From the IMG/VR virus record IMGVR_UViG_3300035520_000529, positions 44,210-108,209 of that record: 64,000 nucleotides of DNA; one strand, written 5' to 3'. Below are positions 10,724 through 47,553 of the stretch, piece after piece (position 1 is the stretch's first letter; each line of letters opens with the position of its first letter). This DNA is from a virus. Taxonomy: Duplodnaviria > Caudoviricetes. The translations under genes were made by a program, and so were the position numbers. The notes below the pieces were generated by a model. It made no database searches. It saw only the letters and a list, made by a program, of their open reading frames with translations, and was not told the origin of the DNA.

Positions 10724-13700
10724 TTAATTAGCAGTTTCCCAGTCAAATAAGTCTGTAAACGTAGTTGTTTTATCGTTACAGATTATTTTATTCGCACCAA
10801 TACTTCCTATATTATATCTGCTTGATGTCTTATACGTTCCATCATCAAGATATATATACCATTGCACAGGTGTATTATTTGGTTCACTTGGAACATGAGG
10901 TAAACGTACATCATAACTAGTAACTAATTTAGCACCCAAATCTATACCATAATCCTCAGATATTTTTTCTTCTTTATTTACTAAATACGCGTAAGTTGGT
11001 CTAAAATAGGTTTCATTTATAGGGTAGCTATATATTAATGAATACGTTTGATTTAATGCGTTTTTAATATCATCATAATTGCCTTTATAATGAATAGTGT
11101 CTAGTGCATCCATTAATTCAAACTTTACTTTATATAAATTTTCAACGTCTATTTCAAAATTTTCTTTAAATCTTGAAGAAGCACTTATAGTTAAATCTAA
11201 CTTGTAATCTTGAATAATATGCTTATCACTGTTAACACTCTCGTCTATTCTATAGAATAAACTTTCACCAATTTTAAAGTTACGCATTATAAATGGTATG
11301 GCTAGTCCTTTAATTGCAGTTTCATTCGTACCATAAGGTTCTGTTACTATAATTTGTCTAGTGGGTCTATAATAATTAGAATTATGAGTTGCTGTTAAGG
11401 ACTCTGCCAATATGGCACCATCATATACATTTATATTATCTGGAAACGTATAAGTTTGCGTAACTTCATCATATGTATAGCGATAGACATTATCAGCATT
11501 TTCTAATAATTTTGATTGAGAAGTAAAATTGATTAAACTACTGAACCATTGTGAATTATGACGGATACTCGCAATTTCACTGCTCGTCAAATGTGGGAAC
11601 ATTTCAGTTATATAGTTTGAACCAGAAGTAGTGGTTCTTGGTAAATATCCTCCACTTCTACTCGTTCCAATACTTAATGTTAATACGTCATCTTCATCAA
11701 TTGAGGTGTTTTTACAACCACACGCAGTTATGATAATATCATAATCACCACCAGTCTCATATGTGTGTGATTTACTTATCATGGTTGAATCTTCATAATC
11801 ATTTACTAGTTGTGTACCATTAAAACTTCTGCCATGAATTAGTGTGGCATTGTTATTACTACCATAAATTTGTGAATAAAAATTTCCCGAACTTGTACTG
11901 TATGAACTTAACAAATCGTATCTAATTACTTTCATGGTATCATTGAATGAGTAGATGTCAAAAGTTCCGTCTCCCCAATACACATAACCTATTGTGCTTA
12001 CGCTTTCTTCTCTTATGTACCTATCGCCCTCAAAAGATGAATATTCGCCATATGGAGTATTTTTTTGGTACTTATCATCATCAACACTTTTACTAAAAAT
12101 ATTATCTAATATTACAGTAGTGTTGTTATTATATGATATTTCAGAGTTAACGTTTCCATTGGAATCAGTATATGTACATTCAGAGAGATATTCTAGAAAA
12201 TCATCTTGAGATTCAAAGAAATCAGCCGATACTAATCTGCCATCACTACAAGCTGAAAGTGAATACGTTCCACCATTTGGGTCTTCAACACTCTTGTATA
12301 CAGTTGTAGTTTCAATTACGGGGTTTAAGCAAGGCACTCCACGATATGTAAAGTAATGATAATGACCAGAACCCTCAATTACATCTTTTTCTGTTATAAG
12401 TTCAGTGTTAAACATATCAGTAGAACTTGTCCAATCAAAAGCCTCTAATGGTACACTTACAATATAGCTACCATAGTACTGATTTTCATAACCACTATCT
12501 TCAACAGTAACACCTAAAGTAAGTGGAGAAATATCTTTTCTAATAATTCCATCTTCTACTAATGAATTTCTCTCATCATAGTATGGTCTAATATTAACGA
12601 TTATTTCTTCGTCCCAATTCTTTCCTGCATTAGAGGTATATGTTAATTGAACAGTTTGACCTTCACCAAACTTATACCTAGCGTTTGAGACATTAGGAAA
12701 TTCATATTTTGTAGTTGTAATAAGTAAATTTTGTTCTTGTTTATCTTGAACTAATTCCTTATTATTGTTATAACACTGATAATGTAACGTTGCAGTTGGA
12801 AAAACCGCTTCACAATTGACATATTGAATCTCTGCCCACAAATATCTAAATGGATACCAATCGAGTTCAGATTCGTTCATTGTCATACTAATTTCTTCTA
12901 AATAATATATAGGATATTCTATTTTTAAAATATTTCCACTATCGGGAGAAGTATATGTTATCTTCATGGTGTGTTCACCATATCCACTATTACAAGGTGT
13001 ATTATAATATTGTACTTTGTTAAATAAAGAATATGATTCAAGTGTATCACATTCCCATGAATTTAATTTATCTACGGATAAACTTGTTCCTACCATTTCA
13101 CCATCGACTTCATGAAACCAATATACACTAGTTGTAATTTTTTGAGCGAAGTACGTTTCTAAGAATTTTTCTCCTATGCAGTTGTCGGCAACCTTTAAAT
13201 ATTCATTAAATTCTTTAGGTTTGTTTAAATTCCAAATAATTTTACTACCTAAAGCCATTTTCCAAATAACATTACTATCCCTGCTTATGTTTAGATATTT
13301 AAAACTAGGCATATGTGAGCCTATTCTCATACTTCTAATTTCTTCACTAGCATCATACCCACCAAATAATACTTTGGCACAAGATGATGAGTCTATGTGA
13401 AAATATGAAGAATTAGTAGTGCCTATTAAAGAATCGTCATCAATATAATAATTTATTTTTTTTAAATTTGAACATCCTACAAACGCACTTGATGATTGTT
13501 CTTCAAGTGACACTACTGATGGTTTGGTTTTAGAACCAAAATTAACAATTTCTAATCCACTGTTAGAACATGAACTATTTTCTACTATTGCCATATATGG
13601 AACGTTCAATTTTTTAAGATTAGTAGCACCATAAAAAGTACCCGAACTAATACGTTTAAGATTATCATCTAACTCACAGTTTATTAAGTATGAGTTATTT

Positions 13701-13924
13701 GCACAAAAACCATATCCAATTTGTTCAAAATCAGTAGTGGTAAATGTAACAGTATATGTGCCACCACTTGCATAACTATGTGAACTAGAACCATATACAT
13801 AGTCACTAGTTGTATCATCACCCCAATCTATAGTACCTGTAATTGAATTGCTTGTGGATATAGGTGATAAACTAAGACTAAATGCATCAGTTGAACTAAA
13901 TGTAAATTTATTAATCATGCTCAT
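10724..13924 (-). CDS. Large tail-associated protein with PKD-like (IDWGD...SHSY..GGTYTV) and short LRR segments
   Basis: Two WGDG/WGDD PKD-like motifs; LRR-like ISSGTFYGATNLKKL. Confidence 0.6.
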   Translation of the reverse strand: MSMINKFTFSSTDAFSLSLSPISTSNSITGTIDWGDDTTSDYVYGSSSHSYASGGTYTVTFTTTDFEQIGYGFCANNSYLINCELDDNLKRISSGTFYGATNLKKLNVPYMAIVENSSCSNSGLEIVNFGSKTKPSVVSLEEQSSSAFVGCSNLKKINYYIDDDSLIGTTNSSYFHIDSSSCAKVLFGGYDASEEIRSMRIGSHMPSFKYLNISRDSNVIWKMALGSKIIWNLNKPKEFNEYLKVADNCIGEKFLETYFAQKITTSVYWFHEVDGEMVGTSLSVDKLNSWECDTLESYSLFNKVQYYNTPCNSGYGEHTMKITYTSPDSGNILKIEYPIYYLEEISMTMNESELDWYPFRYLWAEIQYVNCEAVFPTATLHYQCYNNNKELVQDKQEQNLLITTTKYEFPNVSNARYKFGEGQTVQLTYTSNAGKNWDEEIIVNIRPYYDERNSLVEDGIIRKDISPLTLGVTVEDSGYENQYYGSYIVSVPLEAFDWTSSTDMFNTELITEKDVIEGSGHYHYFTYRGVPCLNPVIETTTVYKSVEDPNGGTYSLSACSDGRLVSADFFESQDDFLEYLSECTYTDSNGNVNSEISYNNNTTVILDNIFSKSVDDDKYQKNTPYGEYSSFEGDRYIREESVSTIGYVYWGDGTFDIYSFNDTMKVIRYDLLSSYSTSSGNFYSQIYGSNNNATLIHGRSFNGTQLVNDYEDSTMISKSHTYETGGDYDIIITACGCKNTSIDEDDVLTLSIGTSRSGGYLPRTTTSGSNYITEMFPHLTSSEIASIRHNSQWFSSLINFTSQSKLLENADNVYRYTYDEVTQTYTFPDNINVYDGAILAESLTATHNSNYYRPTRQIIVTEPYGTNETAIKGLAIPFIMRNFKIGESLFYRIDESVNSDKHIIQDYKLDLTISASSRFKENFEIDVENLYKVKFELMDALDTIHYKGNYDDIKNALNQTYSLIYSYPINETYFRPTYAYLVNKEEKISEDYGIDLGAKLVTSYDVRLPHVPSEPNNTPVQWYIYLDDGTYKTSSRYNIGSIGANKIICNDKTTTFTDLFDWETAN

Positions 13925-13945: not shown

Positions 13946-14500
13946 TTAATACATTTCTTCGTCATCATCTAAAAAGACATAAATCATATTTTCGTCTACA
14001 TTTCCATTACTCACAAGTGTACTCCATTCACTTTCGGCAATTAATGTAAAACATTTAGTTACATTACTATCACTATTGTTATTATTATTTCCACCTTTAG
14101 GTTTAGCTTTACCATTTCGCATAGAAATCCAACCATTTGTAGGCGTTTTCCTATACTCTAAATAACCATATTCACCGCTGGAAATTATTTCACCGCTTTT
14201 ATTTAGTGCTTTGAATGGTTCATCGACTTCGCCTAGCAGTGTAGTGACCTGCACATATCCATCATCACCCTCATCGGATAAGAACTTTATGGGTATTCTA
14301 TGAACTATTTTAAACTCGTCTAGACATTTGCTTATCATAGTTTTAACAAATTTTTTCAATGTGAGTACAAACAAAACACACTTATATTTGATTTCGGCTT
14401 GTTCATAGCTACCATTTGTTGTAGAACCACTACTTATATTTACAGTCTTATTTTTAAATGCATTGGGGTTTTCACTAGGTAATTGTGATAAAATTGCCAT
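13946..14500 (-). CDS. Tail-tip hypothetical protein
   Basis: Operon position, RBS; C-terminal motif shared with 9093..10409. Confidence 0.55.
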   Translation of the reverse strand: MAILSQLPSENPNAFKNKTVNISSGSTTNGSYEQAEIKYKCVLFVLTLKKFVKTMISKCLDEFKIVHRIPIKFLSDEGDDGYVQVTTLLGEVDEPFKALNKSGEIISSGEYGYLEYRKTPTNGWISMRNGKAKPKGGNNNNNSDSNVTKCFTLIAESEWSTLVSNGNVDENMIYVFLDDDEEMY

Positions 14501-14516
14501 AAATAATCACCACCTA

Positions 14517-15698
14517 TTATAAGTTATCGCTTTCAGCGTATGCAGGAAGATATTTGATATTGCATACTGATACTGACATATCGTCTAAGCCTATTGGAAT
14601 GGTTAATGACGTTATTAAGCAGTTTTCTTGTGTCCAATCTAAATATGCTGACGTTACAGAAACTATTCTATTAACGTCTAAGTGTGGTATTAGTGGGCAA
14701 CTAAAACTAGTACTCATAGTTACTGCTGACTTTTGATTTAGTTGATAGTATGCATAATCGTGACAGTGTTTGTCATCGTAACACATATCACTTTCCTCAA
14801 CTTTTTCGCATTTTTCACCAATTAGCGAAATTCTAGTAGGTGAAGCTGGATTTGTATTTTTAGCAGTGTAACTGTGTATTAGACCATCTACGTCAGTACC
14901 ATATACTTTACAAACATTTATTATAGCACCTAAATCATAGTTTGCACTTAGGTTAGAAATTTCTGGCTTGGAAGTATCAAAGAACCAACTAGGTGCTTCT
15001 CTTATATATGTATCTATCTTTGATTCTGTGAAGTTTAAACAACCATATATATCGTAAAACACATCAGCATTTAGCGATGTTCCTAATTCCGTTAAAATAT
15101 CTCCTAAGTAACTATCTGCATCTTTTGTAATATCGTAAGGTAATAGAGTCTTACACATTGACATATCCACTAATGGTTCTATAGGGTCTATAGGAACTCC
15201 ATGCCCCATATCTAATGCTAAAGTTCCAGTGATAGCAGAATATGCGTTAGTATTGTATGGTATTTGATATGTTCCTTGTAAACAATGTTGATTCAAGTCT
15301 TCGGTAAAAAATCCAAATTTATCTACTCCCTCTATTTGAACCTCATGTGGAGTGACGTTTAAACTTTTAATTACAAACACTCCTTGACTCCACCAATAAG
15401 TGTTTTCGCTACTTTTAACACCTAGCCATATCTTAAACTTTTGATTTATCCAAATTAAAGAACTTTCATTTGGTAAAAATTCGTTGTCTAGATTTCGTAA
15501 AGTTAAACTACACGTTCTTCTAACTCCTTGTTGGTACGTTACACTAATAGAGCCTTTAGTATCCGTTGAAACTTCTTTAGAAATCTCCTTTAACGTTTCC
15601 TCAAAATGGTCTAGTAGTTCTAGTTTAAGATACAAGTTATACGTTGATGATTTTAACGTGTTTTCGTATCCAGTATTGTATATATTAAAATATTCCAT
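14517..15698 (-). CDS. Tail/baseplate hub-like protein (DUF5048-like)
   Basis: RRTCSLTL, GVFVI, VFYDIYGCL, IPHLDVNRIV pattern; two genes after tape measure. Confidence 0.6.
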   Translation of the reverse strand: MEYFNIYNTGYENTLKSSTYNLYLKLELLDHFEETLKEISKEVSTDTKGSISVTYQQGVRRTCSLTLRNLDNEFLPNESSLIWINQKFKIWLGVKSSENTYWWSQGVFVIKSLNVTPHEVQIEGVDKFGFFTEDLNQHCLQGTYQIPYNTNAYSAITGTLALDMGHGVPIDPIEPLVDMSMCKTLLPYDITKDADSYLGDILTELGTSLNADVFYDIYGCLNFTESKIDTYIREAPSWFFDTSKPEISNLSANYDLGAIINVCKVYGTDVDGLIHSYTAKNTNPASPTRISLIGEKCEKVEESDMCYDDKHCHDYAYYQLNQKSAVTMSTSFSCPLIPHLDVNRIVSVTSAYLDWTQENCLITSLTIPIGLDDMSVSVCNIKYLPAYAESDNL

Positions 15699-18548: not shown

Positions 18549-21500
18549 CTATAAGTTTTCTTTAAGTAAGGTTGTTAATTGGTCTATGAATTGTGTAGGA
18601 TTGTCAGTGGCTACTTTGTCTATATTTATAGTTAAAGTTTGTGCTACTTGTGTGGATGATTTTAACAAACCATTACTTAATGCAGACGAGTTTTTTAAAT
18701 CCGTTAATGCTTCGTTAGTAACGTCTACAGAGTTCTTTAAGTTATTAACTGGTTCGGCAACAGTTGTGGTCAAACTAGTATTAAAATCTTCGGGTAGTCC
18801 TAAAATTTTATTAATGCTTTCTTGAGTTAGCTTAGTAAACTCATTAACGCTATTTGTAAGACCAGTAAGTTCATCAGTGTGAGTAGAGTTCATTTGTTCT
18901 TCTAACGCACTGATTTGCTTATCCAAAGCTTCTTCTTGTTTGTCAATAGCATCTATTTCTTTATCTATAGCATCTTGTTGGTCTTTAAGAACGTCTATTT
19001 GATCATCTAAGCCATCAATAATATCATTTATGCCGTCTATTTGGTCATCTAAAGCATCAATTTGGTCATCAAGAGCATCAATTTGCTTTTCAAGTTGAGC
19101 AATTTCTTCTTCTTGTAAAAGTTCATCGAGTTCTTGTTGAGCCTCCTTGATTTCATCTTTATCCGTTTCCCATTGCCAACCAAGTTCCTCAGTAAACACT
19201 CTAATAGTTTTTTGATTGAGTGCATTTTGTAATCTGATTTGTGCTTCTTGGATTTTTAAAGCACGTTCTTCCTCTTCATTCTTTTCTTCTAATAAATCTA
19301 TTTGGTCTTGGATAGCATCCTTTTGCTTTTCGATAGCTTCCTTTTGGTCTTCGATTAAGTCTATTTGGTCATTCCAATAGTCTTTCTGGTTTTCGATAGC
19401 ATCAATTTCATCATCTAGGGCATCTTTTTGAGCATTCCAATATTCTTTAGTTTCTTCTAAAGCTTCTTTTTGACTTTCCAGCAGTTCCTTTTGAGCATCT
19501 AATAGACCTTTATAAACTTCTTCTTCATATTTACGATAGTCATCAAGATACTCTATCTTATTGGCATAATATTCTTGATTTAGTTCATTGAGGTACTTAT
19601 AATAGTTCGCATCGTCTATAACGTTCATGTTGTGTAGATGTTCAAGGTATGCAAATTGTTCTTCAGCTTCTGCTTTGTAATAGTCAGTATCACTGCCGTA
19701 ATTACCCGTAGTAACCATAGCTAAATTATTTTTCAATAATTGTAAAGCTTGAATTTGAGCATAAATTTGTTCTGTAGCTTGTCCTCTACTAACTATCGAT
19801 TGTAAATTAACTAATTGCTCATCAATTTCTGCTTCAGCTAATTGCTTATAACTATTAGCATTTAGAGTTAGTTTACCAGTAGTCTTATCCAGTTGAATAC
19901 ATTGTGCATAACCACTATCTATTAACGATGTCATGGTACTTAATGATAAATAACCATTATCTTTAACTTCTTTAAAGGCATTACTCATGGTTGAAGCACT
20001 AGATTCAATGTTTTTAGTAGCTGATAAAATATCGCTAAAACTACCATTTGCAACTGAACCTACTCTACTAGACAAATCTTCCCACATAGACAATATATAC
20101 TCATTATCTTCTAATGATTGACTATTTTCGTCCAAAGCTTTAGATAATTCTTGTACTTGTTGACTAGCATAGGATTTATCAGCGGTTGAGACTGTTGAGT
20201 CACTAAGTTTTTGCTTGTATTCATTAATAGTACTAATTAATTGTGTTTGCTCTTCTTTTAAAGAGTTTATTGCGTTTTGACTATCAACTTTATAAGCTTC
20301 AATCTTAGCTTGTGCTAATTCCTCATACTTTTCAGTATTGATAGTTACTAAACCACTTTCTTTGTCTAGTTCAAGAATATCATCGAAATCGCTTTCTATT
20401 AGTTTAGTAATGTCCTCACTAGATAGACTTCCGCCTTTTCTAATGGTTTCCATCATCGTAGAGATTTCGCTAAATTCACTAGACAACGATGTTATCATAT
20501 CTGAACCTATTTTAGTTGGACTGATTTCATCTTCAAATGATTTGTATTCTTGTTCAAGAGCATAAAGGTCAGTATTTATTTCATTAAGTGCTTCATCGTA
20601 GCCAAGGTTGTCAAACTTAACTTGTAACATTGCTTGAATAGTTGGGTTGCTTTGACTAGCAATATCTTTCAAATCACTTTCTTTAGCACGTTCCAATTCA
20701 GCCTTTTGAGTAAGTAGTGTTGCTTTTTGGTCATTGTACTTCGCTTGAATTAGTTTTTCTAAAGCTTCTCTATCTAAATTGTATACATCAGCGTTAGAAT
20801 TATAATTTAAAGCTTCACTGTAACCATTGCTAATTAAAGATAGTATGGTTTCAGAAGTGAGTTTTCCTTGCTCTGACATTTCTGAATACGCATCAGTTAT
20901 TAAGTCTAAATTATCGGCTAGGGTTTCAAGCTCATCAGAACTACCACCCAATGCTTCTATTAATTCAGTAGTGGTTTGACTAATATTTTCAATTGCACTA
21001 GATACATTGAATGTATGTTCAGACGTATCCTCACTAATATATCCAAATTCTTCTAAATATTCGATTAGATTTTCAAAAGATATTCCACAATCATCGGCAA
21101 CGCTTTGCATATATTCAAATATATTAGCGTAACTTTGAGCCTTGTTTTTGTAGTCACCAGTTTGGAAGTCTAAAACAATTTCCGATGCTGTAGCAGTGCC
21201 TATTAACTTATTAAGGTCAATCTTAGAGAAAATATTTTCAATCTTAGTCTTGATAACATCTTCGTTAAAGTTAGTTAAAAATCCATCAAACCACGATTCT
21301 ACTGTATCAGAAAGACCTTTAGTTTCAATACCTGTAATAGTATCTTTTAAGCTATTTAGTACATCTGACTTAGACATCAGCATATTATAAAGGCTTTCAA
21401 TTTCTTCATAAGTAGATGTTGCCTTTTCAGTTTCACCATTGGCTATATAATCATTGTATTCACTAATTAAACTTTCAACACTACTTTTCCATTCGGAAAG

Positions 21501-23352
21501 AGTTTTACCATCTATATCATCGGTTGAGTAGTCTACAAAACTATCCAAGAATGATGAAATTGTAGTTTCATAATCGTCATATGTGTCCGAGGAATATTTG
21601 GAAATTTTCTTCTGTATAGTAGTTAAAACTTTACTAACGTCTTCACCAGTTTGAGTACCATATGCCTTAACATCATCGTAGGCTTTTTGTAAGTCCTTTT
21701 TATATTGATATATAGAACCATCATTGGTAATACCATATGTATACGTCATGCTTAAATCATTAAGAGATTCTGCTTTAAACCCATTGTTTTTCAAGATATT
21801 ACTAACTTCAGTAGAGAAATTATTTCTACGGAGTGAGATTGATGTGGAACTAAAAATTTTAGATGGGTCATACATCTTTTGGTAAGCAGTTTGAATATCC
21901 TTAGAATTTTCTTGCACAAACTTTGAACTTTCTAGAGCAGATATTTCTTGAAGTTTTTCCAATTGCTCATCAAGTTTACCATTAACTAAGTCTACACCAT
22001 CTGCTTGTGTTCCGTAAGTATCTATTAAAGTTTGTTGTAATTCTAATAATTGCTTATTTGTATCGACTAAGTTTTCAGTGTCTCCACTATTAGCATAGTC
22101 TTCTTGTGCTTCTTTTAATTCTTTCAAGTTGGAAATATTTTCTTCAAGTTCGTCATTAAAAGTTTTAAGATTACTACTAGCTTCAATAGTTTCATCGCTG
22201 ACCTTACCCAATCCCTTAGCCCAACTAACCAAAGTTGATACTATATGTGAAATAGCATATGAAAACAATCCGCCAACCACAGCATTTAATATACCCGATA
22301 CTACACTTAATGCAACTGTTCCTAATTTTGCAACAGCAAGTTTAGTTGCATAGCCTACTAAACCAACTTGTGCTTTATTTAAACTTTGTAGCTGTTCTGC
22401 TAATTTAGGATTTGATAATGCCAAAGTATTTAAAAATTCTTTCTGCGTATCATTTGCAACGTTAAGTTTCAAAGAATTTTCGTCAGCCAGTTTATTGTAT
22501 TCACTTAATGCAGTTAACGTACCAGATAGCCCTTTGCCATAATTAGATGTCTGTAGAAATTCCATGTAAGTTTGGTTGGTTGCTTGAGCATTTATTTTGG
22601 CTCTTGTTGCAAGATAATTTTCTAAGACAGTATTGGCGTTAGAAACCTCTTTTATGTACTTTGACATATCTCCATTGTTTTTAAGCGTATTATTATAGTT
22701 AGTAATGGCTTGTTTATAATCCTTAGTATTAATAATCGATGCACTATCCATTGAACTTGACAAATTAGAACTAATAAATTTACTTGACGTTAAAGATTTA
22801 CTTACAAGCGTGTCAAATTTTTTGAACAATGTACTTAGTGCGTTACCTATATTTTTGATAAAGGATGTGTTTAAAGTTTTGGTTATTATCTCCACAGAAC
22901 TAGTAACATTTTTTAGAGAAACGTTATTTATGTTATTAAAGCCATTTTGAATTTGGCTAATCTTGTCGCTATAATTATTCAAAGGTGTTGAACTTTTCTT
23001 AATGTTCTTAAAAAACTCATCAGTAAATCCTAAAGTACCAAATTTTTTATTCATTAGTCCATAAGCACTACCTATACTAGCAATTAGTACTGGAATTGCT
23101 CCAAATAAATCTACAAGTCGGTTAGCTTTGTTGATGAGTTGGTTTATGCCGTCTAAAAAGTCTTTTATAAACTCTGTATCGAATGTTGTAGTGGATATTT
23201 CTTGTGCAGATGCTTTAATAACATTTACTTTACCCTCAATGCTATCTACATATTTTTGGTTTTCTGTTTCAGCAGAACCCTCAGCATTGTTTGCAACTTC
23301 CAATGCTTTTTCAACTTGTGACCAGTTTGAGAGTAATGCTGATACTTGGTTT
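18549..23352 (-). CDS. Tape measure protein, exon 3
   Basis: Frame is open upstream of the ORF-track start: (A)NQVSALLSNWSQVEKALEVANNAEGSA...; long coiled-coil sequence; continues exon 2 ...AGKNRA. Confidence 0.85.
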
Positions 23353-23437
23353 CATTTATATTTAGCGAGTTCGTTAGGCTCACTTGATTTTAGTTAATAA
23401 TAGTGAGAGTTGAAGCCTTACAACTCTCGCTTGTGTT

Positions 23438-25975
23438 TTAGTCTAAATATGTAACTTTCTTGCAACCATCGAAAGCATCTTTTACGATTGTTTTAACTGT
23501 TTTAGGTACTTCTATTTCTAGATTTGTGCATCCTTTAAAAGAACCGCTTTGTATTGATTGTACACTATTGGGAATTGTTAGTTTTTGTAACGATTTACAA
23601 TTATGAAATGCATATTTACCGATAAGTTTCACATTTTCTCCGATGGTGACTTTTTCTAGGTTAGTACAGTCTTCAAAAGTACTTATACCAATGCGAGTTA
23701 CTTTATTTGGAATTTCTATTTCCGTTAAACTTTTACAAGCCCTAAATGCTTCGCTGTATATTTCTTTAATGTTTTTTGGTAAATTTACTTTTTCTAAGCT
23801 AATGCAATCTTTAAAAGCATGTGCACTAATACGAGTTACAGAATTAGGAATATCTATTTTTTTTAAATTTTTACATTCCGCAAAACATCTGCTACTTATA
23901 CTTTTAATATTTTTTGGTAAAATTATTTCTTCTAAATTACAACAACCACCAAAGGCAACATATCCAATACTTGTTACAGAATTAGGAATATTTATTTCTT
24001 TTAAATTTTTACAACCATAAAACATTGCTCTGTTTATATTTTTAAGGTTTTGTGGCAGAGTTATTTTTTCTAAATTAGTACAGCCACTGAACGTTACTCT
24101 GTTTATATTTTTTATGTTTTTTGGTAGAGTTATTTCTTTCAAATTAGTACAATTGCTAAAACTCCAATCACTAATGCAAGTTACAGTACTAGGAATCTCT
24201 ATTTCTTTTAAACTTTCACAACCACTAAAGGCTTCACTGTGTATTGCTTTGATACTTTTTGGCAAATTTATTTTTTCTAAGTTACTACATCCACTGAAAG
24301 CTTTTTCTCCAATCGTGGTTACTGTATTAGGAATCTCTATTTTCTTTAAAGTTTCACAATAACAAAATGCTTCATTGCATATTTTTTTAAGGTTTTGTGG
24401 TAGAGTTATTTCTTCTAAATTAGTACAACCATAAAAAACACTTTCTTCAATACTGCTTACAGCATTAGGAATGTTTATTTTCTTTAAACTTTTACAGTTA
24501 GAAAAAGCTTTGGTATATATACTTTTAAGGTTCTGTGGTAAAGTAATTTCTTTTAAGTTACTACATCCACTAAAAACACTTTCTCCAATTGTGGTTACTG
24601 TGTTTGGAATTTCTACTTCCTCTAAAGTTTCACAATTTCTAAAAAGTCCATTGTTAAAGATTTTGATGTTTTTCGGTAAAGTGATTTCTTCTAAATTAGC
24701 ACAACCATCAAAAGCATATTTGCCAACACTTTTAACACTATCTAGAAGTACCATCTTTATTATATTAATACAATTTCTAAAAGCATTATCTCCTATACAC
24801 TTTATATCCTTTGAAACTATTATTCCCTCTAAATCTACTTTTTGAGGACACTTTATGATAGTACTGTCACATTTATTAATTAACGCTCCTTGCGAATCAT
24901 AATACTTTTTATTGTTTTTATCCACAGATATTGTTTTTAAATTATCGCAATCATTGAAAGCATTTGAATCAATATGCATTACACTGCTAGGTATAGTTAT
25001 TTTTTCTAGACTAGTACATTCTTTAAAATCGGATGCGTCGATAGAAACTACACCATGTGGAATAGTTAACTTGATTAGACTTGAACACCCACTGAAACTA
25101 ATCTTTTCAGTATTTACTAACGATTTAGGAAATATTATTTCTTTTATAGTGGAACAGTCTACAAAAGCGTTAGGGTGTATATTACATATATTGTTTGGTA
25201 TTGTTAATATACTTTCACACCCTTTATATTTGTAAAGAACATTGCCTAGCACAATTAAATCATTTGGATAATCTCTTATGAATGGTGTATTTTCAAAGGC
25301 ATTATATCCAATAAAAATAACAGTATTTGGAATAATTATGTTGCTTAAACTTGTACAATTCTTAAAAGCATCTTCTTCAATAAATTTAACACCATTAGGA
25401 ATTGTTATGCTCTCTAAGTTTATACAATTGCTAAAAGCACCCTTATCGATGGAGACAACGCTACTTGGAATAGTTATGCTTTTTAAAGCTGTACATCTAC
25501 CAAAAACACCATCTCCTATAGAGGTAACATTATTAGGAATACTTATATTAGTTAAATTTGTGCACTCGTGAAAAACATATTTACCTATAAAGGCAACACT
25601 ATTAGGAATAGTTACACTAGTTAAATTTATGCAACCATCAAAAACATTATCTCCAATGGTGATAACTCCATTTGGAATAGTTACATTAGTTAAGTTTGTA
25701 CAACCTTTAAAAGCACACTCTCCAATAGATGTAACACTATTAGGAATAGTTATATTGGTTAAGCATGTGTAATTTTTAAAAGCACTACTTCCAATAGACT
25801 TAACACCATTAGGAATAAATATACTACGAATTTTTTGATTTCTCCATGAGAAGTCAGAACCACAAAATGCATAATCTCCAATAGATGTAACCCCATCGGG
25901 TATTACAACGTTGACTTCAGTTCCATTGTAATGTTCTAAAATACCATCTACAATTACAAAATCTTCACTTGCCAT
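23438..25975 (-). CDS. 845-aa BspA-type (LRR_5) leucine-rich repeat protein encoded inside the intron
   Basis: About 30 repeats of 23 aa (L..I.IPN.V..IG..AF..C); no signal peptide visible; own RBS. Confidence 0.92.
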   Translation of the reverse strand: MASEDFVIVDGILEHYNGTEVNVVIPDGVTSIGDYAFCGSDFSWRNQKIRSIFIPNGVKSIGSSAFKNYTCLTNITIPNSVTSIGECAFKGCTNLTNVTIPNGVITIGDNVFDGCINLTSVTIPNSVAFIGKYVFHECTNLTNISIPNNVTSIGDGVFGRCTALKSITIPSSVVSIDKGAFSNCINLESITIPNGVKFIEEDAFKNCTSLSNIIIPNTVIFIGYNAFENTPFIRDYPNDLIVLGNVLYKYKGCESILTIPNNICNIHPNAFVDCSTIKEIIFPKSLVNTEKISFSGCSSLIKLTIPHGVVSIDASDFKECTSLEKITIPSSVMHIDSNAFNDCDNLKTISVDKNNKKYYDSQGALINKCDSTIIKCPQKVDLEGIIVSKDIKCIGDNAFRNCINIIKMVLLDSVKSVGKYAFDGCANLEEITLPKNIKIFNNGLFRNCETLEEVEIPNTVTTIGESVFSGCSNLKEITLPQNLKSIYTKAFSNCKSLKKINIPNAVSSIEESVFYGCTNLEEITLPQNLKKICNEAFCYCETLKKIEIPNTVTTIGEKAFSGCSNLEKINLPKSIKAIHSEAFSGCESLKEIEIPSTVTCISDWSFSNCTNLKEITLPKNIKNINRVTFSGCTNLEKITLPQNLKNINRAMFYGCKNLKEINIPNSVTSIGYVAFGGCCNLEEIILPKNIKSISSRCFAECKNLKKIDIPNSVTRISAHAFKDCISLEKVNLPKNIKEIYSEAFRACKSLTEIEIPNKVTRIGISTFEDCTNLEKVTIGENVKLIGKYAFHNCKSLQKLTIPNSVQSIQSGSFKGCTNLEIEVPKTVKTIVKDAFDGCKKVTYLD

Positions 25976-26011
25976 AACATCAAGACCTTTCTACAATAAT
26001 TTGTTAGGTAT

Positions 26012-26040
26012 ATTATAGCAAATGTTTTGTGAAAAGTCAA
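26012..26040 (-). promoter_or_regulatory. Intron-internal sigmaA promoter for the LRR gene
   Basis: TTGACT-17 nt-TATAAT with extended TG, about 36 nt upstream of ATG 25975. Confidence 0.85.
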
Positions 26041-26451
26041 TATAAATCGTTTGCTTTTATTCGATATTTTAACTAAAATCACTCATGCTTTCACATGAGA
26101 TTAGACTATTTCTTCACCCTCACCATTATGTGTTAGGGGCATACCTTTTCCGTTTAAGAGGTTTTCACTCACTCACTTGAGCCGTACTCCTATTGACACA
26201 ATTCTGTCTATTGTGTCCTATGGGATAGCCGTTGAAGTTTCTCCGTGCCTTTCGGTTTAGGAGCTTACCTGCATGAACAACCATTGTTATCGGTTATTTA
26301 GGATTTAACCATGTAACCATCCTTACGTTGTTTCTACTTTCGTACCATCGTAGCGTGATTTCTCCGCTACTGTGGTGTAAGGCTTTAGGTATTACCTGCA
26401 ATTAGATATGTATGTTATGCACATTTCTGTACATAAGGGTAAATTAAGTTT

Positions 26452-27225
26452 GCCCTATTCTTACCTGCAATTTTTTCAAGTAATCCAGCTTGATTTATGT
26501 CGGATAAATCATCCCAAACGTTAGCAATTTCTCGCATAATTTCATAGGTTGATTTATATGTGTTACTATCTTTCATGATGTCTATACCCGACAAAGCTTT
26601 AATATCTTCTCTCATTTTGGAAGTGGTTTCAGCCATACCCTCAGTATCTTCGCCCATTTCCTCAACTTCTACCTTGCTAGAGCGTAACCTCATGGATAGC
26701 GTTTTTAATGCGTTACCCATACTGTTGGCATCTTGGGTTATTTCAGTACCACCAGTTATCATTGCTATAGATTCGTTTAAACTATTTCCTGCTACCGCTA
26801 AAGCACTAGCACTTTGTGTTAAACCCTCGCCAATATCAGAGGAACTTAACGCAAACTTATTACCTACATCGTTGAACGCATCCACGATACTAATGCTATC
26901 CTCAGCTTCAACGTTAAAAGCTTTCATAGCAGTTACAAGGTCACTAGTAGCAGTATCAATGTCAATGAAGCCTACATTAGAATACATAGTTGCAATATTA
27001 CCTAATGTTGTAGCTTCGTCTAGAGTGTAACCTAGTCTACTAAATGACGATACTGCATCAATAACGTCTGTAACAGTACTAGCTAACTCTTTAGCACTAC
27101 TAGTAGCAGTAGTTAAAAACTTATCATAAGTATCACTGGTTTCGGAAGTAACACGTTTTAAGGTTACCATCGAAGTATCGACTTCTTCAACAGTAGTTAA
27201 CATTTCTTTGAAATAACTTATTACT
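26452..27225 (-). CDS. Tape measure protein, exon 2 (conserved TMP core)
   Basis: VDTSMVTLKRVT, FSRLGY, VGNKFALSSSDIGEGL..SASAL, MGNALKTLSMRLR, LLEKIAGKNRA. Confidence 0.88.
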
Positions 27226-27400
27226 CTGATATATAAACTTTATAATTATTTATAAACACTCAAAAAATTATAAGATTATTTCCTTATTCAACGTGTCCGC
27301 TTTGGATTGTATTTCTACAATCTACTCACGCTTGTATGACACTCCAAAGGCGTAAATTCGGCGTTATCAACACCTACATATTAGCATAATCTTGATATTG
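27226..27400 (-). ncRNA. TnpB omegaRNA scaffold / IS607 right end
   Basis: Downstream of tnpB; shares TTCCTTATTCAACGTGTCCGCTTTG and GACACTCCAAAGGC.TAAATTC blocks with 47430-47515, weaker similarity to 55620-55710. Confidence 0.8.
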
Positions 27401-27403
27401 ACT

Positions 27404-28552
27404 CTATGCTAATTGATAGTTTGCTAAATTAATACTAGCGTTCTTATCTCTATCCAAAGTGAAACCACACACATCACAGTGGTATGTTCTATCCTTGAGT
27501 TTCAAATCTTTCTTGACGTTTCCACATTGAGAACACCTTTTGCTTGATGGATAGAACCTATCAGCTTGAATAAATCTAATTCCGTACTTTTCGGACTTGT
27601 ACTTCATAAGGCTAATAAACTGATAGAACCCCTGTTCTGCTATGGCTTTTGAAAGATGTTTGTTTTTCAACATACCTGTGACGTTTAAGTCTTCCATAAC
27701 TATTCTCGATGGCTTGGTTTTCGCAATCGCATTAGTTACTTGGTGGTTGTGATTTAGACGGATGTTCTTTAACTTTTCGTGGATAAGCTTGATTATTCGC
27801 TCTAGTTTCAAGATGTTTTGAGTCTTAACATACCTCTTGCCTTGGCGGTTCTTCTCATATTTCCTCGAAACTTGACGTTGCAATCTTCTAAGTCTCTTTT
27901 TCAACTTTCTAATCTTTTGAGTTTTGTTGATATTTCTAAAAGGACTATCGAAATTACTAACAGTCGCGAGTTCCTTGATGCCTAAGTCAATGCCTACAGA
28001 TAAGTTCTCATCCAGTTCTAAAGGTTGGTTTTCACACTCAATACCTAAAGACAAGTACCAGTATCGTCCATTGAATTTTATTCTTGGATTGCATACTGAT
28101 ATTTTATCTTTCTTGTAATTGCCTTGAGGTAGCCTATTTTCGTCATTCATCTTGACTACACCAATCTTTTCAAGCTGTATTTGACTATCCGTAACTTTAA
28201 ATTTAGTTGGTAAGTGATAGAAAGATATAGTGCTTCTCTTCTTGGACTTATGTCTAGGATACTTGGCAACTTTCTTAAAGAACTTACTTCTAGCATCGTC
28301 AAAGTCTTTAATGGCTTGTTGAGGTATCTCCGAGGAGACTTCTTTAAGCCATGGGTACTTGTTAGAGTTCCTAATCTTAGTGAAGTGCTTTCGCATAGTA
28401 CCAACGCTTACAGATTTTCCGTATAGTTTGTAATAGGTTTCGAAAAATCCTAACGCCCAGTTGTACGCAAATCGCATAACACCTGCTGATTTCCACATTA
28501 AAGTCTCTTGCTCTTTCGTTGGATAGAGTTTGACTTTTATGCCTTTAATCAT
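27404..28552 (-). CDS. tnpB: TnpB RNA-guided nuclease (IS607 type)
   Basis: RuvC D/E/D intact (GIDLG, VMEDL, DRDKNAS); Zn finger CSQCG...CDVCG. Confidence 0.95.
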   Translation of the reverse strand: MIKGIKVKLYPTKEQETLMWKSAGVMRFAYNWALGFFETYYKLYGKSVSVGTMRKHFTKIRNSNKYPWLKEVSSEIPQQAIKDFDDARSKFFKKVAKYPRHKSKKRSTISFYHLPTKFKVTDSQIQLEKIGVVKMNDENRLPQGNYKKDKISVCNPRIKFNGRYWYLSLGIECENQPLELDENLSVGIDLGIKELATVSNFDSPFRNINKTQKIRKLKKRLRRLQRQVSRKYEKNRQGKRYVKTQNILKLERIIKLIHEKLKNIRLNHNHQVTNAIAKTKPSRIVMEDLNVTGMLKNKHLSKAIAEQGFYQFISLMKYKSEKYGIRFIQADRFYPSSKRCSQCGNVKKDLKLKDRTYHCDVCGFTLDRDKNASINLANYQLA

Positions 28553-29156
28553 CTTCAGACAACTCCTTAATTATCTTTTTGGTTTTATTGGCTCTTTTCC
28601 CTTGTAATCTACAACTGAACACAGTTATTATTTGGATTAAATCTTCGACAATTTCTTCTTCGTCACTTCTTTCGGTATTGTCGATTATTTCAATTTCAAC
28701 ACCCTTAGAAATACAAATATTTTCTATTAGTTCGTATCCAAACCTAACCAATCTATCCTTATATAGAATTACGATTTTAGAAACTTCCTCATTTAAAACC
28801 ATACTCATAAGCTTGTTCAAGCCTTTATTTTGATAATTAATTCCGCTACCTATATCCGAGATTATTGAAAACTGATAGCCTTTAGCATACATATACATCT
28901 TGACGTTTTCAATTTGTCTATCTAAAGCTTCTTTTTGCTTTTGACTAGACACTCTACAGTAGCCTATTGTCTGCTTAGATTTTACCTTTTCACCATTATA
29001 AATTTTAAGTTGTTCATCGGTATAATAGCGATAACCTGTCACCTCATCCACATATGCAGGTTTTAGTTTACCACTTTTATCCCAATTTCTTAAAGTTTGT
29101 TCTGTACGATTTATTAATTTAGCAAATTGTCCTATGGAATATTTTCTAATTTCCAT
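28545..29156 (-). CDS. tnpA: IS607 serine recombinase/transposase
   Basis: MerR-like HTH (TLRNWD..GKL, GYRYY) plus catalytic GYCRVSS, DIGSG, DRLVRFG. Confidence 0.95.
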   Translation of the reverse strand: MEIRKYSIGQFAKLINRTEQTLRNWDKSGKLKPAYVDEVTGYRYYTDEQLKIYNGEKVKSKQTIGYCRVSSQKQKEALDRQIENVKMYMYAKGYQFSIISDIGSGINYQNKGLNKLMSMVLNEEVSKIVILYKDRLVRFGYELIENICISKGVEIEIIDNTERSDEEEIVEDLIQIITVFSCRLQGKRANKTKKIIKELSEDD

Positions 29157-29177
29157 GTTTTATCACCTCTTGTACTA

Positions 29178-29206
29178 ATTATAACATAAACATTATAATA
29201 TGTCAA
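29178..29206 (-). promoter_or_regulatory. Intron-internal sigmaA promoter for tnpA-tnpB
   Basis: TTGACA-17 nt-TATAAT with extended TG. Confidence 0.85.
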
Positions 29207-29402
29207 GAGTTATTTTGAGTATTTATAAATAATTATAAAGTTTATACCTTTTGCTATAGAACGCAACTTCTATAACGCTATTTCGCTCACGCTAATAGCC
29301 ACTCTCTTTCGAGACGTGCAAAGACTATTTCTTCACCCTCACCATTACGTGTTAGGGGCAAACCGCTTCCACTACCATACGCTTGTAGTGTACTCCATCT
29401 CT

Positions 29403-29583
29403 GGATAGCCGTTGAAGTTTCTCCGTGCCTTTCGGTTTAGGAGCTTACCTGCATGAACAACCATTGTTATCGGTTATTTAGGATTTAACCATGTAACCAT
29501 CCTTACGTTGTTTCTACTTTCGTACCATCGTAGCGTGATTTCTCCACTACTGTGGTGTAAGGCTTTAGGTATTACCTGCAATT
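29403..29583. repeat. 181-bp direct repeat of 26223..26403 (shared intron core)
   Basis: Identical by eye except one position (CTCCACTAC vs CTCCGCTAC); 29322-29360 also matches 26103-26141. Confidence 0.92.
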
Positions 29584-29675
29584 CAATTTGTGTGCTACGC
29601 TCGTTTCCGAACGTACCCAGCTGAAAACTCTATAATTTTATATTTTTATTATAGTTAATTATAAAGTTTTCGTTA

Positions 29676-32600
29676 CTGTAAATCATAGTGCCTAAAACTG
29701 CTTTTAAACCTATCTTTGAGAATAAGTTATCTAATTCTTGACCAACACTTTTACCAGTTTTGCCAAGTTTAGTAACTTCTGTTTTAATGCTTTCAAACCT
29801 ACTTTGTAAACCTAGTAGATTTTCTTTAGTCCTATCTATGCTATTTGCTTCACTAATAATACTATCTAACTGAGACTTAAATGAATAAGTCGAACTCATT
29901 GCTTTTCCGTTTTTTGCTTGAAATTGTGTAACATCAGCTATAAGTTTAGAGTATGCACTATCTATTTTATTTTGAGAAGTTGTAAAACTTACGCCACTTA
30001 ACGCACTAGCAGATTCACTCTTTAATTTTTCAAAGTTTTCAGTACAGATTATTATATTATTGGATAAGCTTTGTAGTTGTGCACTTTGAGATTCAAAAGT
30101 ATTTTCTCCATTTTTGATACCATTTAAAATAGTTGTAAATTCTACTGTATTTTTGTTTAGTTCTTGTTGCTCTTTATTTAAAGCTTCAATATAAGTTTTT
30201 CCAACGTAATTTTTATCACTGATGGTGGTGGTATCTTTAATAGTAGCATTTTTAGTATTCTCATTAATGCTTAATTTGTTAATTAAATTTGTAATAGTAT
30301 TGTTTGTTACTGTTGCACTATTAAGTTGTGATTCATATTTTTGTAAGGTTTTAAGTTGTGAATTTATTGACTCAAATTCTTTATTTAGTTCTTCATATCT
30401 AGTAATAGCTTTTTTGGGATTGGACTTGTCTATGTTATTTAAATTAGTTTGAATTTCTTTTAGATTATTTAATAATTGAAACTTTTCTAACGCACTAGAT
30501 TTTGTGCCTAATTTGGTAGTAATTTGATTATTTAATTCACTAATTTTATCCTCAATTTTAGGTATAGCATTACTTTTAGTGCTTAATTCAGTAACACTTT
30601 TTGATACATTATCTATATTAGATTTAAAGATAGCTAGATTTTCTGTATTAATATTAGTAGGATCGTTTACTAAAGTAGCATACGTTTCTTTTAAAGATTC
30701 AAGAGAAGTTTTTATCGTATTGATATTATTAGTTAATTCAGTACCTAAACCATTTCCACCCAAATTGTTAAATTTTTCTTCAATTGTGGTAAGATTGCCA
30801 CTTACCTTGTCTAATTCTTTTTTATATTTTTCAAGTTGGGTGATGTTTTGATTAATAGTATTATCGGTTATCTTGCCATAGTTTCTAGTATAATTTTCAT
30901 ATCCTTTTTGATAAGCCTTTTCTAACTTAGCAATGGTTTCATCACTAAAACCATACGTTTCAGCTATGTTAGTAGTCTTTTGACTATCATTCTGTAGTTT
31001 TGCTTGAATGTATTCTAGATATTTTTTACCAGTTTCATCGAGTAAAGCTGTTTGTTCTCTAATAATAGTATTTTCGGAATTTAATTCATTTTCAACAATC
31101 TTACTTGTAGCGGATGATTGAAGTTCTAATTTTGTTTTATTTGCAAGAGCAGTGGTGATTTTTGTTATAATGTTTAGTTGCTCTTTTAACACATTATTAT
31201 TATAATTATTATTATTATAACTATTAAGTGTTTTAGTGTTTTGATTAGCGTTGCTATCAATAGCATTGCCATAATTCCTTATAGAGGGTATGTTATAATA
31301 TTGTTGATACATTGAATTTAATTTGGCAATAGTTTTTTCGCTAAGTCCATACTTGTCAGCTATATTAGAACCATTTTCGCCATTCATTAAAGTTTTAATA
31401 TATTCTAAGTATATTTTACCATTTTTATTGAGCAAAGCAGTTTGTTCATCAATGACCTTATTTTCAGAAGCTAACCTTTCCTCAAATGTTTTGTCTGTGG
31501 TAGTCGATTGAAGAAGTTGCTTATTTCTATTAGAATAAGCTTTAGTGATTTCTTTAATATAACCTAATTGTGATTTAAGGTTCTCGCTATTGTTAAGTGA
31601 TTCTTTACTTTGCTTTGATTGAGCGATTTGTGTTGTTTTGATATTAACAGTTAAGCCTACTTTTTTTAAAGCTTCTTCAATTGCAGTTTTAAGGTTTTCA
31701 ATAGCACCTGTGGCTTCAAACGCACCTATTTTTATAGTTAAAGGATTGCTTTTATCGTTTAACTTGCCAACAACATTCTCGTTAATCTCTTTCTTAGTTA
31801 GAGGTTTGATTTGAACTGGTATCTTTAAATCAGAAACCTTTTTTTTAACTTCGTTAATTGCTTTAGTAGCACTAATAGACTTTAGATTAAGAGTAATTTT
31901 ATTGTTTAGTTTTTCGCTTATAAGAGTTTTTAATTCTTTAATGTTTTGGCTATTAACTTTCAAGTTTACTTCTAATGGTACATTAGTGCTTTTTAATTTT
32001 TCACGGAGTTCCTTTAAGGCTGAACCATACGTAAACTTGCTAACTCCAACTGAAACATTAACCTTATTTAGTTTAGTTTTTAATTTATCGTTTATGCTTG
32101 ATATACTATTAGATTTATTATCATATCCAAAACTTAAATTTACCTTTTGAGAATCAACGTATTTTTGTACTTGATTTAATGTATTTTGTAGCGTTTCTTC
32201 ATTAAACCCATTAAACTTTAGTTGAAAATCTAACTTGTTAAGTTCATCAACAATTTTAGAATAATCTATTGTAGCATTTATATTAGAACCATTTAAATTA
32301 ATATTAATCGGATTGCTTTGTATGTTTTCTCTAATTCTAGTTAGAGCTTCAGTGATTTGGGTCTCTATGTTTTGAACGTTAGTAGTAAGTTCGATTTTTG
32401 GAACAGCATTCTTAATAGTTTCAAGTTGTTTATTAAATGTTTCTGATGAGGAAAAATTATTTTCCAAAGATATTTTTATTTTTGTATTTTCTTGAATAGA
32501 TTTTAGTGCTTCATTTAATTCTTTAATTTGGTTTATAACAGTGTCATTTTCTATAGTAGTTTCACTTGTGGTTGTTTTGCCAACTTCCTCATTAACTTCA

Positions 32601-33721
32601 TTAATCTTTTTTTTTACATTTTTAATGTCATCGGAAATATTAAGTTTTAAAGTGTATCCCTTAGTATTTTTGCTCCATTTACTTAAGGTTTCATCCGCTT
32701 CCTTAATTACTGTTAAAACATCTTTTAAATCACTAGCATCTACTTCTATCTTATACTTTAGATTACCCTCTTTAATTCTTTTTAAACTTTCACTATATGC
32801 TATGTCTGGGTTAAAATTATTAGTTAAAGAGTTAGATACAGTATCATAGTCTAATTTTACCATTTTAGTTTGTAATTCAGAAACCATTTTGGTATATTGA
32901 GACAATATTTCCTTTTTAAAGTCAGTAAAACTATTACCATACTGATTTTTTGCTTTATTCAAAAAATCATTTATCTCTGCAGAATTGTCAAACATAGTAC
33001 CCATCCACGTTTTAAATCCGCTAAAATTAGATTTAGTACCATTTTGGTATTGGTATTTTTCGATATTTTGTAATATTAGAGCTAACGCATTGGCTCGGTC
33101 TAATATCTCTTCCTGTGAGACGCTTTCCGCATTTTTGACTTCTTCTCCTGCTTTTAGAATTTTCTCACTTATACCATCACCATACAATTGGATAGCTTTT
33201 TCAACACTAGTTTTATCTTGACTAAACTCCTCAACTAGTGCTGATGAACTTAATTTAGTCCTATCTGAAAGAGTTTCTAGAGAGGTAATTAAACCATTTA
33301 TCGAAGAACTGTCGAGACTTAATTCCTTGAGCTTTGTTTTATTCAAATCACTTACATCAAATAATTTTGAGAATTTTTGTTCCTCTTTTTGAGTAAAATA
33401 CATATATTCAAAATTACTTGCTTGTTCTAATAGTTTTAACGCTTCTATCAATTCCAATATTTTTTTAGTAGAAGCATCAGTATCAATTTCTGGAATTTTC
33501 AAACTATCTAAATCATCGTTTACCTTATTTTTTAATTTGTCTATTACACTTTTGAATTTAGCAGTAGCGTTTGCAAGTTCATCAGCGTTCATATTAGGCT
33601 TAAATGTAATATCATATTTTCTTTTTGTTATGTTTATGGCATTTTCAACAATTTGATTCAAGTCTTCTTGATTAAGACCAGCACCAAATTTAATCATTGC
33701 TCCATTAGTTGATTCTGACAT
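29676..33721 (-). CDS. Tape measure protein, exon 1
   Basis: Long helical protein after the tail chaperone genes; joins exon 2 in frame. Confidence 0.82.
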
Positions 33722-47359: not shown

Positions 47360-47550
47360 CCGTTACTGAAAACTTATAAAAAGTTATAACAACTCTTGAT
47401 TAAGTTACAAAATTTATAACTTTTAGGTTTCATTCCTTATTCAACGTGTCCGCTTTGAGTTTTGTTTCCAAAACCTACTCACACTTGTGTGACACTCCAA
47501 AGGCTTAAATTCCCGACTAACGTATCGGTACATTCGTGTAACACTTGTGT
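47360..47550 (-). ncRNA. TnpB omegaRNA scaffold
   Basis: Conserved blocks shared with 27280-27360. Confidence 0.75.
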
Positions 47551-47553
47551 TAG

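Follow-up and report, generated by a model that had tools for sequence, protein, structure and literature searches.

A review of bacterial group I introns mentions only endonucleases and IStrons as their cargo (PMC3984707), and elements of these two kinds are the closest described relatives of the locus considered here. In IS607-type IStrons (group B and CsISt1-like), the ribozyme is located at the 5' end, a kilobase-sized transposon cargo is carried in domain 9 within an AU-rich inverted-repeat stem, the 5' exon has no terminal U, and derivatives devoid of an open reading frame (ORF) retain the stem-loop only (PMC4227781). Group I introns have also been published for the tape-measure genes of Bacillus cereus-group prophages (PMC2504315) and ICP1 (PMC10448857), together with the variation of their endonucleases: a conserved domain serves as intron hot spot, and ORF content is variable between near-constant flanks. 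In the present work, we analysed a stretch of 64,000 nt, hereafter the window, covering positions 44,210 to 108,209 of the virus record IMGVR_UViG_3300035520_000529 (Duplodnaviria; Caudoviricetes), a metagenome assembly estimated to be 64% complete. Positions 26451-23353 of the window, within the tape-measure gene, are on sequence grounds one 3099-nt group I intron, from a ribozyme lineage that also forms IStrons, and its only ORF codes for a BspA-type leucine-rich repeat (LRR) protein. This LRR intron has the host gene, hot spot and ORF variability of the prophage and ICP1 introns, the cargo of which is homing nucleases, whereas its own cargo is a non-nuclease gene with a predicted promoter. 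We consider it highly probable that it is a spliced group I intron with a self-promoted, non-nuclease cargo, a reading that is the best available because of the anatomy of the element, the protein motif restored by its removal, covariation among relatives, a second assembly and selection on the downstream exon.

ORFs with their own promoters are present in the introns of phage T4 (td, nrdB and sunY/nrdD), and that of sunY lies between the catalytic core and a short 3' segment that has to pair back to it; the LRR intron resembles them in both respects. However, the T4 intron ORFs are homing endonucleases placed under phage middle or late promoters. Morons are promoter-gene-terminator units found between phage genes. 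The LRR cassette is likewise a self-contained unit with a predicted host-type promoter and an accessory, non-essential-looking gene that varies among related phages, but it is situated inside an intron of an essential gene. In fungal mitochondria, the group I intron mL2449 of the rRNA genes also contains a protein gene that is not a nuclease, rps3; unlike the LRR cargo, this gene is organellar, has a housekeeping role for the host, lacks its own promoter and does not vary as accessory cargo does. A literature search for accessory, non-mobility cargo of group I introns returned no report.

Ribozyme, predicted splice sites and exon join

All features of the intron, its cassette and the exons lie on the minus strand. 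The Rfam covariance model RF00028 matches 26461-26082 over model positions 1-253, that is, its full length, with 53.2 bits for a gathering score of 50 (E = 1e-10), and defines a group I ribozyme from P1 to P9 at 26082..26451. In P1, AGGGCAAA pairs with UUUACCCU, and P9 (CUCAUGUGAAAGCAUGAG, with a GAAA loop) ends at 26082. The 5' splice site lies directly after C26452. As AAAC forms the first four bases of both the intron and exon 3, five cut positions are possible, and the cut was placed there because G23353 is the sole candidate terminal G. The 3' tail AAAUAUAAAUG (23353..23363), which holds this one G only, is preceded by a P9.2-like hairpin, AGUGAG-CCUAACGAA-CUCGCU (23364..23384). The minimum-energy fold of a construct from which the cargo was deleted recovered the P2 hairpin, P9, the long stem described below and the P9.2 hairpin. 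With regard to membership of group I, the conserved catalytic core, P3-P8 with the G-binding site of P7, is recognised by RF00028 above its gathering score, and there are a terminal G and an exon join that restores the host gene, as judged by comparison with uninterrupted homologs.

The tape-measure gene is predicted to consist of three exons totalling 9621 nt, or 3207 codons. Exon 1 (29676..33721) ends ...GTMIY(R), where the homologs P0005 and P0006 continue ...GTMIYR(A/V)I(S/G)YFK.M. Exon 2 (26452..27225) carries the PhageMin_Tail domain (PF10145, E = 4.7e-24) and ends ...AGKNRA; the corresponding ORF (27203-26415) terminates just within the RF00028 match, and the domain reaches its final exon residues. 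Exon 3 (18549..23352) starts NQVSALLSNW. Deletion of 26451-23353 gives ...GGT AAG AAT AGG GC/A AAC CAA GTA... (the slash marks the join), hence AGKNRA/NQVSALLSNW in frame, with AATAGGGC/AAACCAAGTA as predicted ligated-exon RNA junction and ...AGKNRA/NQVSALLSNWSQVEKALEVANNAEGSAETENQKYVDSIEGK as protein across the predicted join. The intron-less homologs P0009 (AGKNRANVVAGMLENW...GSAEAELDKYKESIAG) and P0012 (AGKNRANVLAAILQS...GSAERELKTYLDSIEGR), to which P0053 and P0089 are similar, match the joined exons residue for residue with no gap, and the join therefore restores the conserved motif AGKNRAN(V/Q)(V/L)(A/S)A.L.N...GSAE.E..Y.(D/E)SI.G shared by these four proteins. The nearest homologs, P0004, P0005 and P0006, end ...AGK(T/N)RAN(L/I)NC.YVQKCA followed by a stop, which corresponds to read-through into the same intron; the contigs of P0004 and of a further locus (L008) stop inside the intron, and their cargo is not covered. 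A preliminary description of the window, made from its letters and ORFs, had recognised a group I core with a GAAA-capped P9 and a terminal G, had proposed the in-frame fusion of AGKNRA to NQVSALLSNW, and had suggested a search with group I covariance models. The full-model match above the cut-off bears out the first point and answers the last, and the fusion is what uninterrupted tape-measure homologs read.

Two relatives with the intron at this site are informative. One is a 119-kb SPbeta-like contig (L003), in which the intron interrupts the identical codon (14185-15670, 5' splice site 14184/14185), with a core 86-89% identical to that of the window. The other (L146) is an independent assembly from another sample, with an exon 3 89% identical to that of the window. 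The 3' tail is identical in both, and the tail conserved between the window and L003 reads TAACGAACUyGyUAAAUAUAAAUG/AAA. Compensatory changes distinguish L003 from the window in P9, in P9.2 (three pairs) and at the base (7 bp) of the long stem, and a U.G pair of the P9.2-like hairpin is replaced by U-A in L146. A third locus (L147), with an exon 3 only 34% identical, was discarded as a relative of the same intron, as it carries another intron at another site.

These comparisons bear on the possibility that splicing was lost, the cassette having disabled the intron so that the tape-measure protein would be made as separate polypeptides or the phage would be defective. Such a loss would agree with a non-canonical 5' splice-site pair, with a 2.67-kb insert containing a hairpin and an internal promoter, and with the metagenomic and incomplete nature of the record. 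We nevertheless judge it improbable, since the ribozyme core is intact and the stem, P9.2 and the terminal G have been kept with compensatory changes in three phages. Furthermore, exons 2 and 3 lack ribosome-binding sites and starts of their own, and a TGA stop (23354-23352) shuts the exon-3 frame at the junction, the downstream ORF being open from 23351 only. The ratio of non-synonymous to synonymous substitution rates (dN/dS) of exon 3 between the window and L146, both from phages with the LRR intron, is 0.10 over 1596 codons, indicative of strong purifying selection. Separately translated tape-measure fragments were rejected on the grounds of these missing starts, the abutting stop and this low ratio.

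The LRR cassette and its relatives

Downstream of P9, the spliced-intron reading places a complete expression unit in domain 9, in the order P9, 5' stem arm, promoter, AGAAAGG, ATG, LRR ORF, hairpin, 3' stem arm, P9.2-like hairpin and tail. The 5' arm UGAUUUUAGUUAA (26069..26081) pairs with the 3' arm UUAACUAAAAUCA (23385..23397) in a perfect 13-bp stem with 11 AU pairs, which loops out the 2.67-kb cassette, and an inverted-repeat stem thus surrounds a domain-9 cargo as in IStrons. The basal 7 bp are homologous to those of L003, with one compensatory pair, and the outer part differs. Other perfect inverted repeats of 11-12 bp arise by chance in the same AT-rich stretch, and the weight of this stem therefore stems from its position and its relatives, not from its length. 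The candidate sigma-70/sigma-A-type promoter, TTGACT-17-TATAAT with a TG-extended -10 element (26012..26040), agrees with the consensus at 11 of 12 positions and predicts a transcript start near 26005; within 23200-29800, it is the second-best site, after the promoter inside a neighbouring IStron. A ribosome-binding site, AGAAAGG (25986..25992), is located 10 nt before the ATG of the 845-codon ORF (23438..25975), and is followed 3' of the ORF by a hairpin (23405..23428) that might act as a weak terminator or a 3'-end stabiliser. Measured against a moron, the unit has this predicted promoter with extended -10 at one end, and at the other a hairpin with a poor U-tract on the minus strand that is missing from L146. 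Besides, TTAGACTAAAAC at the LRR stop codon recurs as TTAACTAAAATC, the 3' stem arm (window 23386-23445, minus strand), while positions 605-627 of L146 hold one copy of this repeat without the intervening hairpin, as if one form had arisen from the other via repeat-mediated deletion or duplication. TTAA is found at both borders of the cargo, inside the stem.

The cargo protein is composed of about 35 repeats of 23 residues spanning residues 23-845; PF13306 matches it in nine stretches (E = 4.5e-289), and 29 regular motif hits recur with a 23-residue period. These tandem LRR_5 repeats of about 23 residues place it in the BspA-type LRR family. No signal peptide was detected. Searches of Pfam, PHROGs, PADLOC and PDB sequences returned LRR matches only, with no nuclease, maturase-like or nucleic-acid-binding domain, nothing of the HNH, GIY-YIG, LAGLIDADG and similar types that characterise homing endonucleases, and no non-LRR segment of nuclease-sized length. 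A nuclease domain hidden in the LRR ORF was rejected on this basis, the repeats filling residues 23-845. The preliminary description had spoken of a non-nuclease passenger in a cassette of promoter, ribosome-binding site, BspA-type LRR ORF and downstream hairpin: each of these parts was located, and the passenger's matches agree with that view. It had also given the enclosing stem as 12 bp; the enclosure stands, and the length is in fact 13 bp (26081-26069 with 23397-23385).

In L003, the same place is occupied by a gene for a 209-aa NYN protein (PF01936; PADLOC HEC-09, E = 4.5e-15), preceded by a predicted promoter with a 12/12 match (TTGACA-17-TATAAT, 14628-14656) and flanked by the arms of a perfect 16-bp stem; the outer portion of this stem has no sequence relationship to its counterpart in the window. 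The leader of this gene, of about 300 nt, contains a 38-nt direct repeat twice (about 14742-14779 and 14859-14897). L146 covers the C-terminal 204 aa of the LRR ORF, 62% identical and with the same ...CKKVTYLD end before the stop, and this ORF is directly followed by P9.2, tail and exon 3 as in the window. Between the window and L146, the LRR segment has a dN/dS of 0.29, compared with 0.10 in exon 3, and its dN is about four times higher (0.25 versus 0.058); these values indicate that both are under purifying selection.

Intron-encoded proteins are usually dedicated to their intron, and the LRR protein might accordingly be a splicing cofactor or a mobility factor rather than serve the phage. 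We hold this to be very improbable: the domain and PDB sequence searches revealed nothing of a nuclease, a maturase or a nucleic-acid-binding protein, the same ribozyme carries the unrelated NYN gene in L003, and the empty relatives of the intron presumably splice without an LRR protein.

Two further BspA-LRR proteins are encoded in the tail-fibre and lysis region of the window, also on the minus strand. One is a 262-aa LRR_5 protein (6079-6867), just upstream of the holin and endolysin genes and 53% identical to the N-terminal repeats of the cargo; the other, of 1066 aa, combines a PKD domain with LRRs (10724-13924). Their presence suggests that LRR proteins are part of the host-interaction apparatus of the phage, and on account of it our best guess is that the cargo is a functional accessory protein with a role in host interaction or associated with the tail.

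A homolog search identified no close relative of the LRR cargo, its best matches being bacterial surface proteins with 37-42% identity. In a metagenome assembly, such distant affiliation could point to a chimera in which a bacterial LRR gene was misplaced into a phage intron, an explanation that we regard as barely credible and have rejected. In L146, the LRR gene, intron tail and exon 3 are contiguous in an independent assembly; the G+C content of the cargo (28-31%) agrees with that of the phage; the phage has its own LRR paralogs; and the two arms of the stem, one on either side of the insert, are complementary.

Several points nonetheless weigh against a spliced intron with functional cargo. 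Splicing is deduced from sequence, and the role of the LRR protein is conjectural. The P1 pair at the splice site is C.A in the window and C-G in L003, where U.G is canonical, and the L003 intron does not reach the gathering score of Rfam. Only one assembly shows the cassette's 5' junction, from P9 through stem and promoter to the ORF start. Finally, tape-measure expression could be disturbed by two elements upstream of exon 3, namely a hairpin on the sense strand and a strong promoter within the intron. The objection raised by the 5' splice site is softened because the targets of group B IStrons likewise lack a terminal U, and splicing of BcISt1 in vivo was shown by Tourasse et al. in 2014 (PMC4227781). 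In addition, IStrons similar in size and layout to the LRR intron splice in vivo (PMC4227781), and RNA-seq has demonstrated that the tape-measure transcript of ICP1 is spliced (PMC10448857).

IS607 elements and the wider intron family

The same tape-measure gene contains, 0.8 kb upstream of the LRR intron, a bona fide IS607-type IStron (27226..29675, minus strand, as are its parts) with a group I core, a 34-bp AU-rich stem (29247-29214 with 27265-27232), a 12/12 promoter (29206-29178), tnpA (29156-28545), tnpB (28552-27404) and a RAGATH-18 element (27350-27280), the guide-RNA scaffold of IS607 TnpB (PMC11061315). Its insertion point follows AG and its last bases are CAG, as in CsISt1, and its removal (29675-27226) joins ...GTMIY/RVISYFKEM, as P0005 and P0006 read. 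Its core and that of the LRR intron are 95.6% identical over 205 nt and belong to the same ribozyme lineage.

Given this kinship, the LRR cassette could be a remnant of an IS607 element, or be mobilised like one: an IStron in which tnpA, tnpB and the guide RNA were replaced by the LRR gene, with exchange via the AU-rich arms, for instance by TnpA recombinases that are encoded elsewhere in the genome and act in trans. Apart from the near-identical core, such a derivation would account for an AU-rich stem around the cargo like that of group B IStrons (PMC4227781), for the promoter of one type that all three cassette types (LRR, NYN and IS607) have immediately within the stem, for the three IS607 copies in the window and for the TTAA borders. 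We consider it unlikely, however. No remnant of tnpA, tnpB or RAGATH-18 is present within 26451-23353, and a BLAST comparison of the LRR cassette flanks with the three IS607 copies of the window revealed no similarity. The order of the 3' domain also departs from that of IStrons, in which the stem and insertion sequence follow P9.2, whereas the stem of the LRR intron lies between P9 and the P9.2-like hairpin; and the LRR intron ends in AUG, not in CGG or CAG. Moreover, the existence of relatives that are empty or carry HNH genes suggests that the lineage is one of ordinary introns. A further difference from described IStrons lies in the insertion site, which is shared with related phages in a homing-like manner, whereas CdISt1 and BcISt1 occupy variable, transposon-like locations (PMC4227781). 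The LRR intron as reconstructed here thus fits neither definition: it has no embedded IS200/IS605 or IS607 element, the defining feature of IStrons, and its only ORF is not a homing endonuclease.

The two remaining IS607 copies, also on the minus strand, lie elsewhere in the window. The first (55624-57488) comprises a third group I core (32.5 bits), tnpB (56930-55752) and RAGATH-18, and interrupts a gene whose upstream part (58800-57565) matches PF05183, the family of the SPbeta YonO RNA polymerase. YonO transcribes the late genes of SPbeta. This element looks like an IStron inside the phage's own YonO-like RNA polymerase gene, and if that polymerase drives the late genes here, the sigma-A-type promoters inside the introns would be served by another polymerase than the host gene, and that of the LRR cassette would separate cargo expression from late transcription. 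The second (47433-49318; tnpA, tnpB and RAGATH-18), upstream of which BLAST detected no group I core, adjoins a tyrosine integrase gene (49912-50913). The phage has two tyrosine integrases, and a temperate lifestyle is therefore possible.

A P2 motif of the ribozyme, TGTACAGAAATGTGCAT, was found in more than 114 IMG/VR loci (gut-virome contigs), mainly in tape-measure genes. Introns with this motif (L015-L127) interrupt at least a dozen codons of the conserved tape-measure domain, and some genes contain two or three of them. Many are ORF-less and about 450 nt long, with P9, a short AT-rich hairpin, the P9.2-like hairpin, an A-rich tail and G; their domain-9 stem-loop is short and empty, and the cargo of the window occupies the same place. 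The usual cargo of the sister introns is an HNH homing endonuclease (phrog_559, phrog_9084 and phrog_7140), the ORF of which begins within tens of bases of P9, and a few hold IS607 tnpA and tnpB; no LRR or NYN gene was found in the sampled introns of the family. Sister introns that are either empty or hold such HNH genes, which lack a near-consensus promoter, number about 100 in the tape-measure genes of gut phages. Promoter scores differ by cargo, reaching 11/12 for LRR, 12/12 for NYN and 12/12 for the IS607 cassette, and at most 10/12 in 46 HNH examples. The comparison of alleles that had been proposed at the outset has thus yielded a diverged LRR gene (L146), a NYN gene (L003) and empty or HNH-bearing sister introns, here or at neighbouring sites.

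Other searches returned little. When the region was compared with the phage collection by megablast, the only hit was 59 nt long, in Pseudomonas phage PhiPA3; two distant exon-2 relatives were found in viral contigs and none in genome contigs; exact-pattern scans for the 3' junction had no match in viral or metagenome collections; and scans with the P9.2 segment gave a single, unrelated chance match (L148). In four loci (L066, L076, L090 and L117), the intron at the GSAE site is followed by a short resumed exon (74 aa, ...FISSIG) and then by variable small genes on both strands, including in L090 a MazE-like ORF with an 11/12 promoter. These small ORFs lie beyond the resumed exon and were not counted as intron cargo, but the variable block may be another cargo-bearing interruption.

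A possible slot for accessory genes

On the reading of the LRR element as a spliced intron, the catalytic core, from P1 to P9, would be contained in the first 370 nt and fold co-transcriptionally. The domain-9 stem-loop would enclose the 2.67-kb cassette, and once RNA polymerase has crossed the latter, pairing of the stem arms would draw P9.2 and the terminal G towards the core. Exon ligation would follow, allowing synthesis of the essential tail protein. The moron-like cassette could be expressed by the host RNA polymerase, apart from late phage transcription, and the LRR protein might in addition be produced from the pre-mRNA or the excised intron. The preliminary description had viewed the ribozyme as a neutral landing pad, in an essential late gene, for an accessory gene open to host RNA polymerase even in the lysogen; the parts of this view that sequence can address are supported, whereas neutrality and expression in a lysogen would be conjecture.

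More tentatively, we can propose that the domain-9 stem-loop is a general docking slot for exchangeable, self-promoted cassettes, with IS607 elements, a NYN nuclease gene resembling defence genes and a rapidly evolving LRR gene for host interaction as its occupants. SPbeta-like gut phages may then use tape-measure introns as safe harbours for accessory genes, transcribed by the host RNA polymerase apart from YonO-type late transcription and swapped via the AU-rich palindromic arms, possibly by IS607 TnpA. This generalisation is doubtful at present, and the cassette may have arrived by IS607-like recombination, by replacement of an endonuclease gene or by insertion into the palindromic hairpin.

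The LRR intron, a compact case with one gene, a ribozyme passing the Rfam cut-off and clean stems, would be a convenient model for kilobase spacing between a group I core and its 3' splice site, and also for the interplay of cargo expression and splicing. Homing-endonuclease and IStron cargo serve the intron (PMC3984707, PMC4227781), whereas here a large, selectively maintained gene with no apparent mobility function seems to fill the slot. The intron, so far seen as a purely selfish element, may thereby be recast as a site where a dense phage genome keeps and exchanges accessory genes while leaving an essential gene unbroken.

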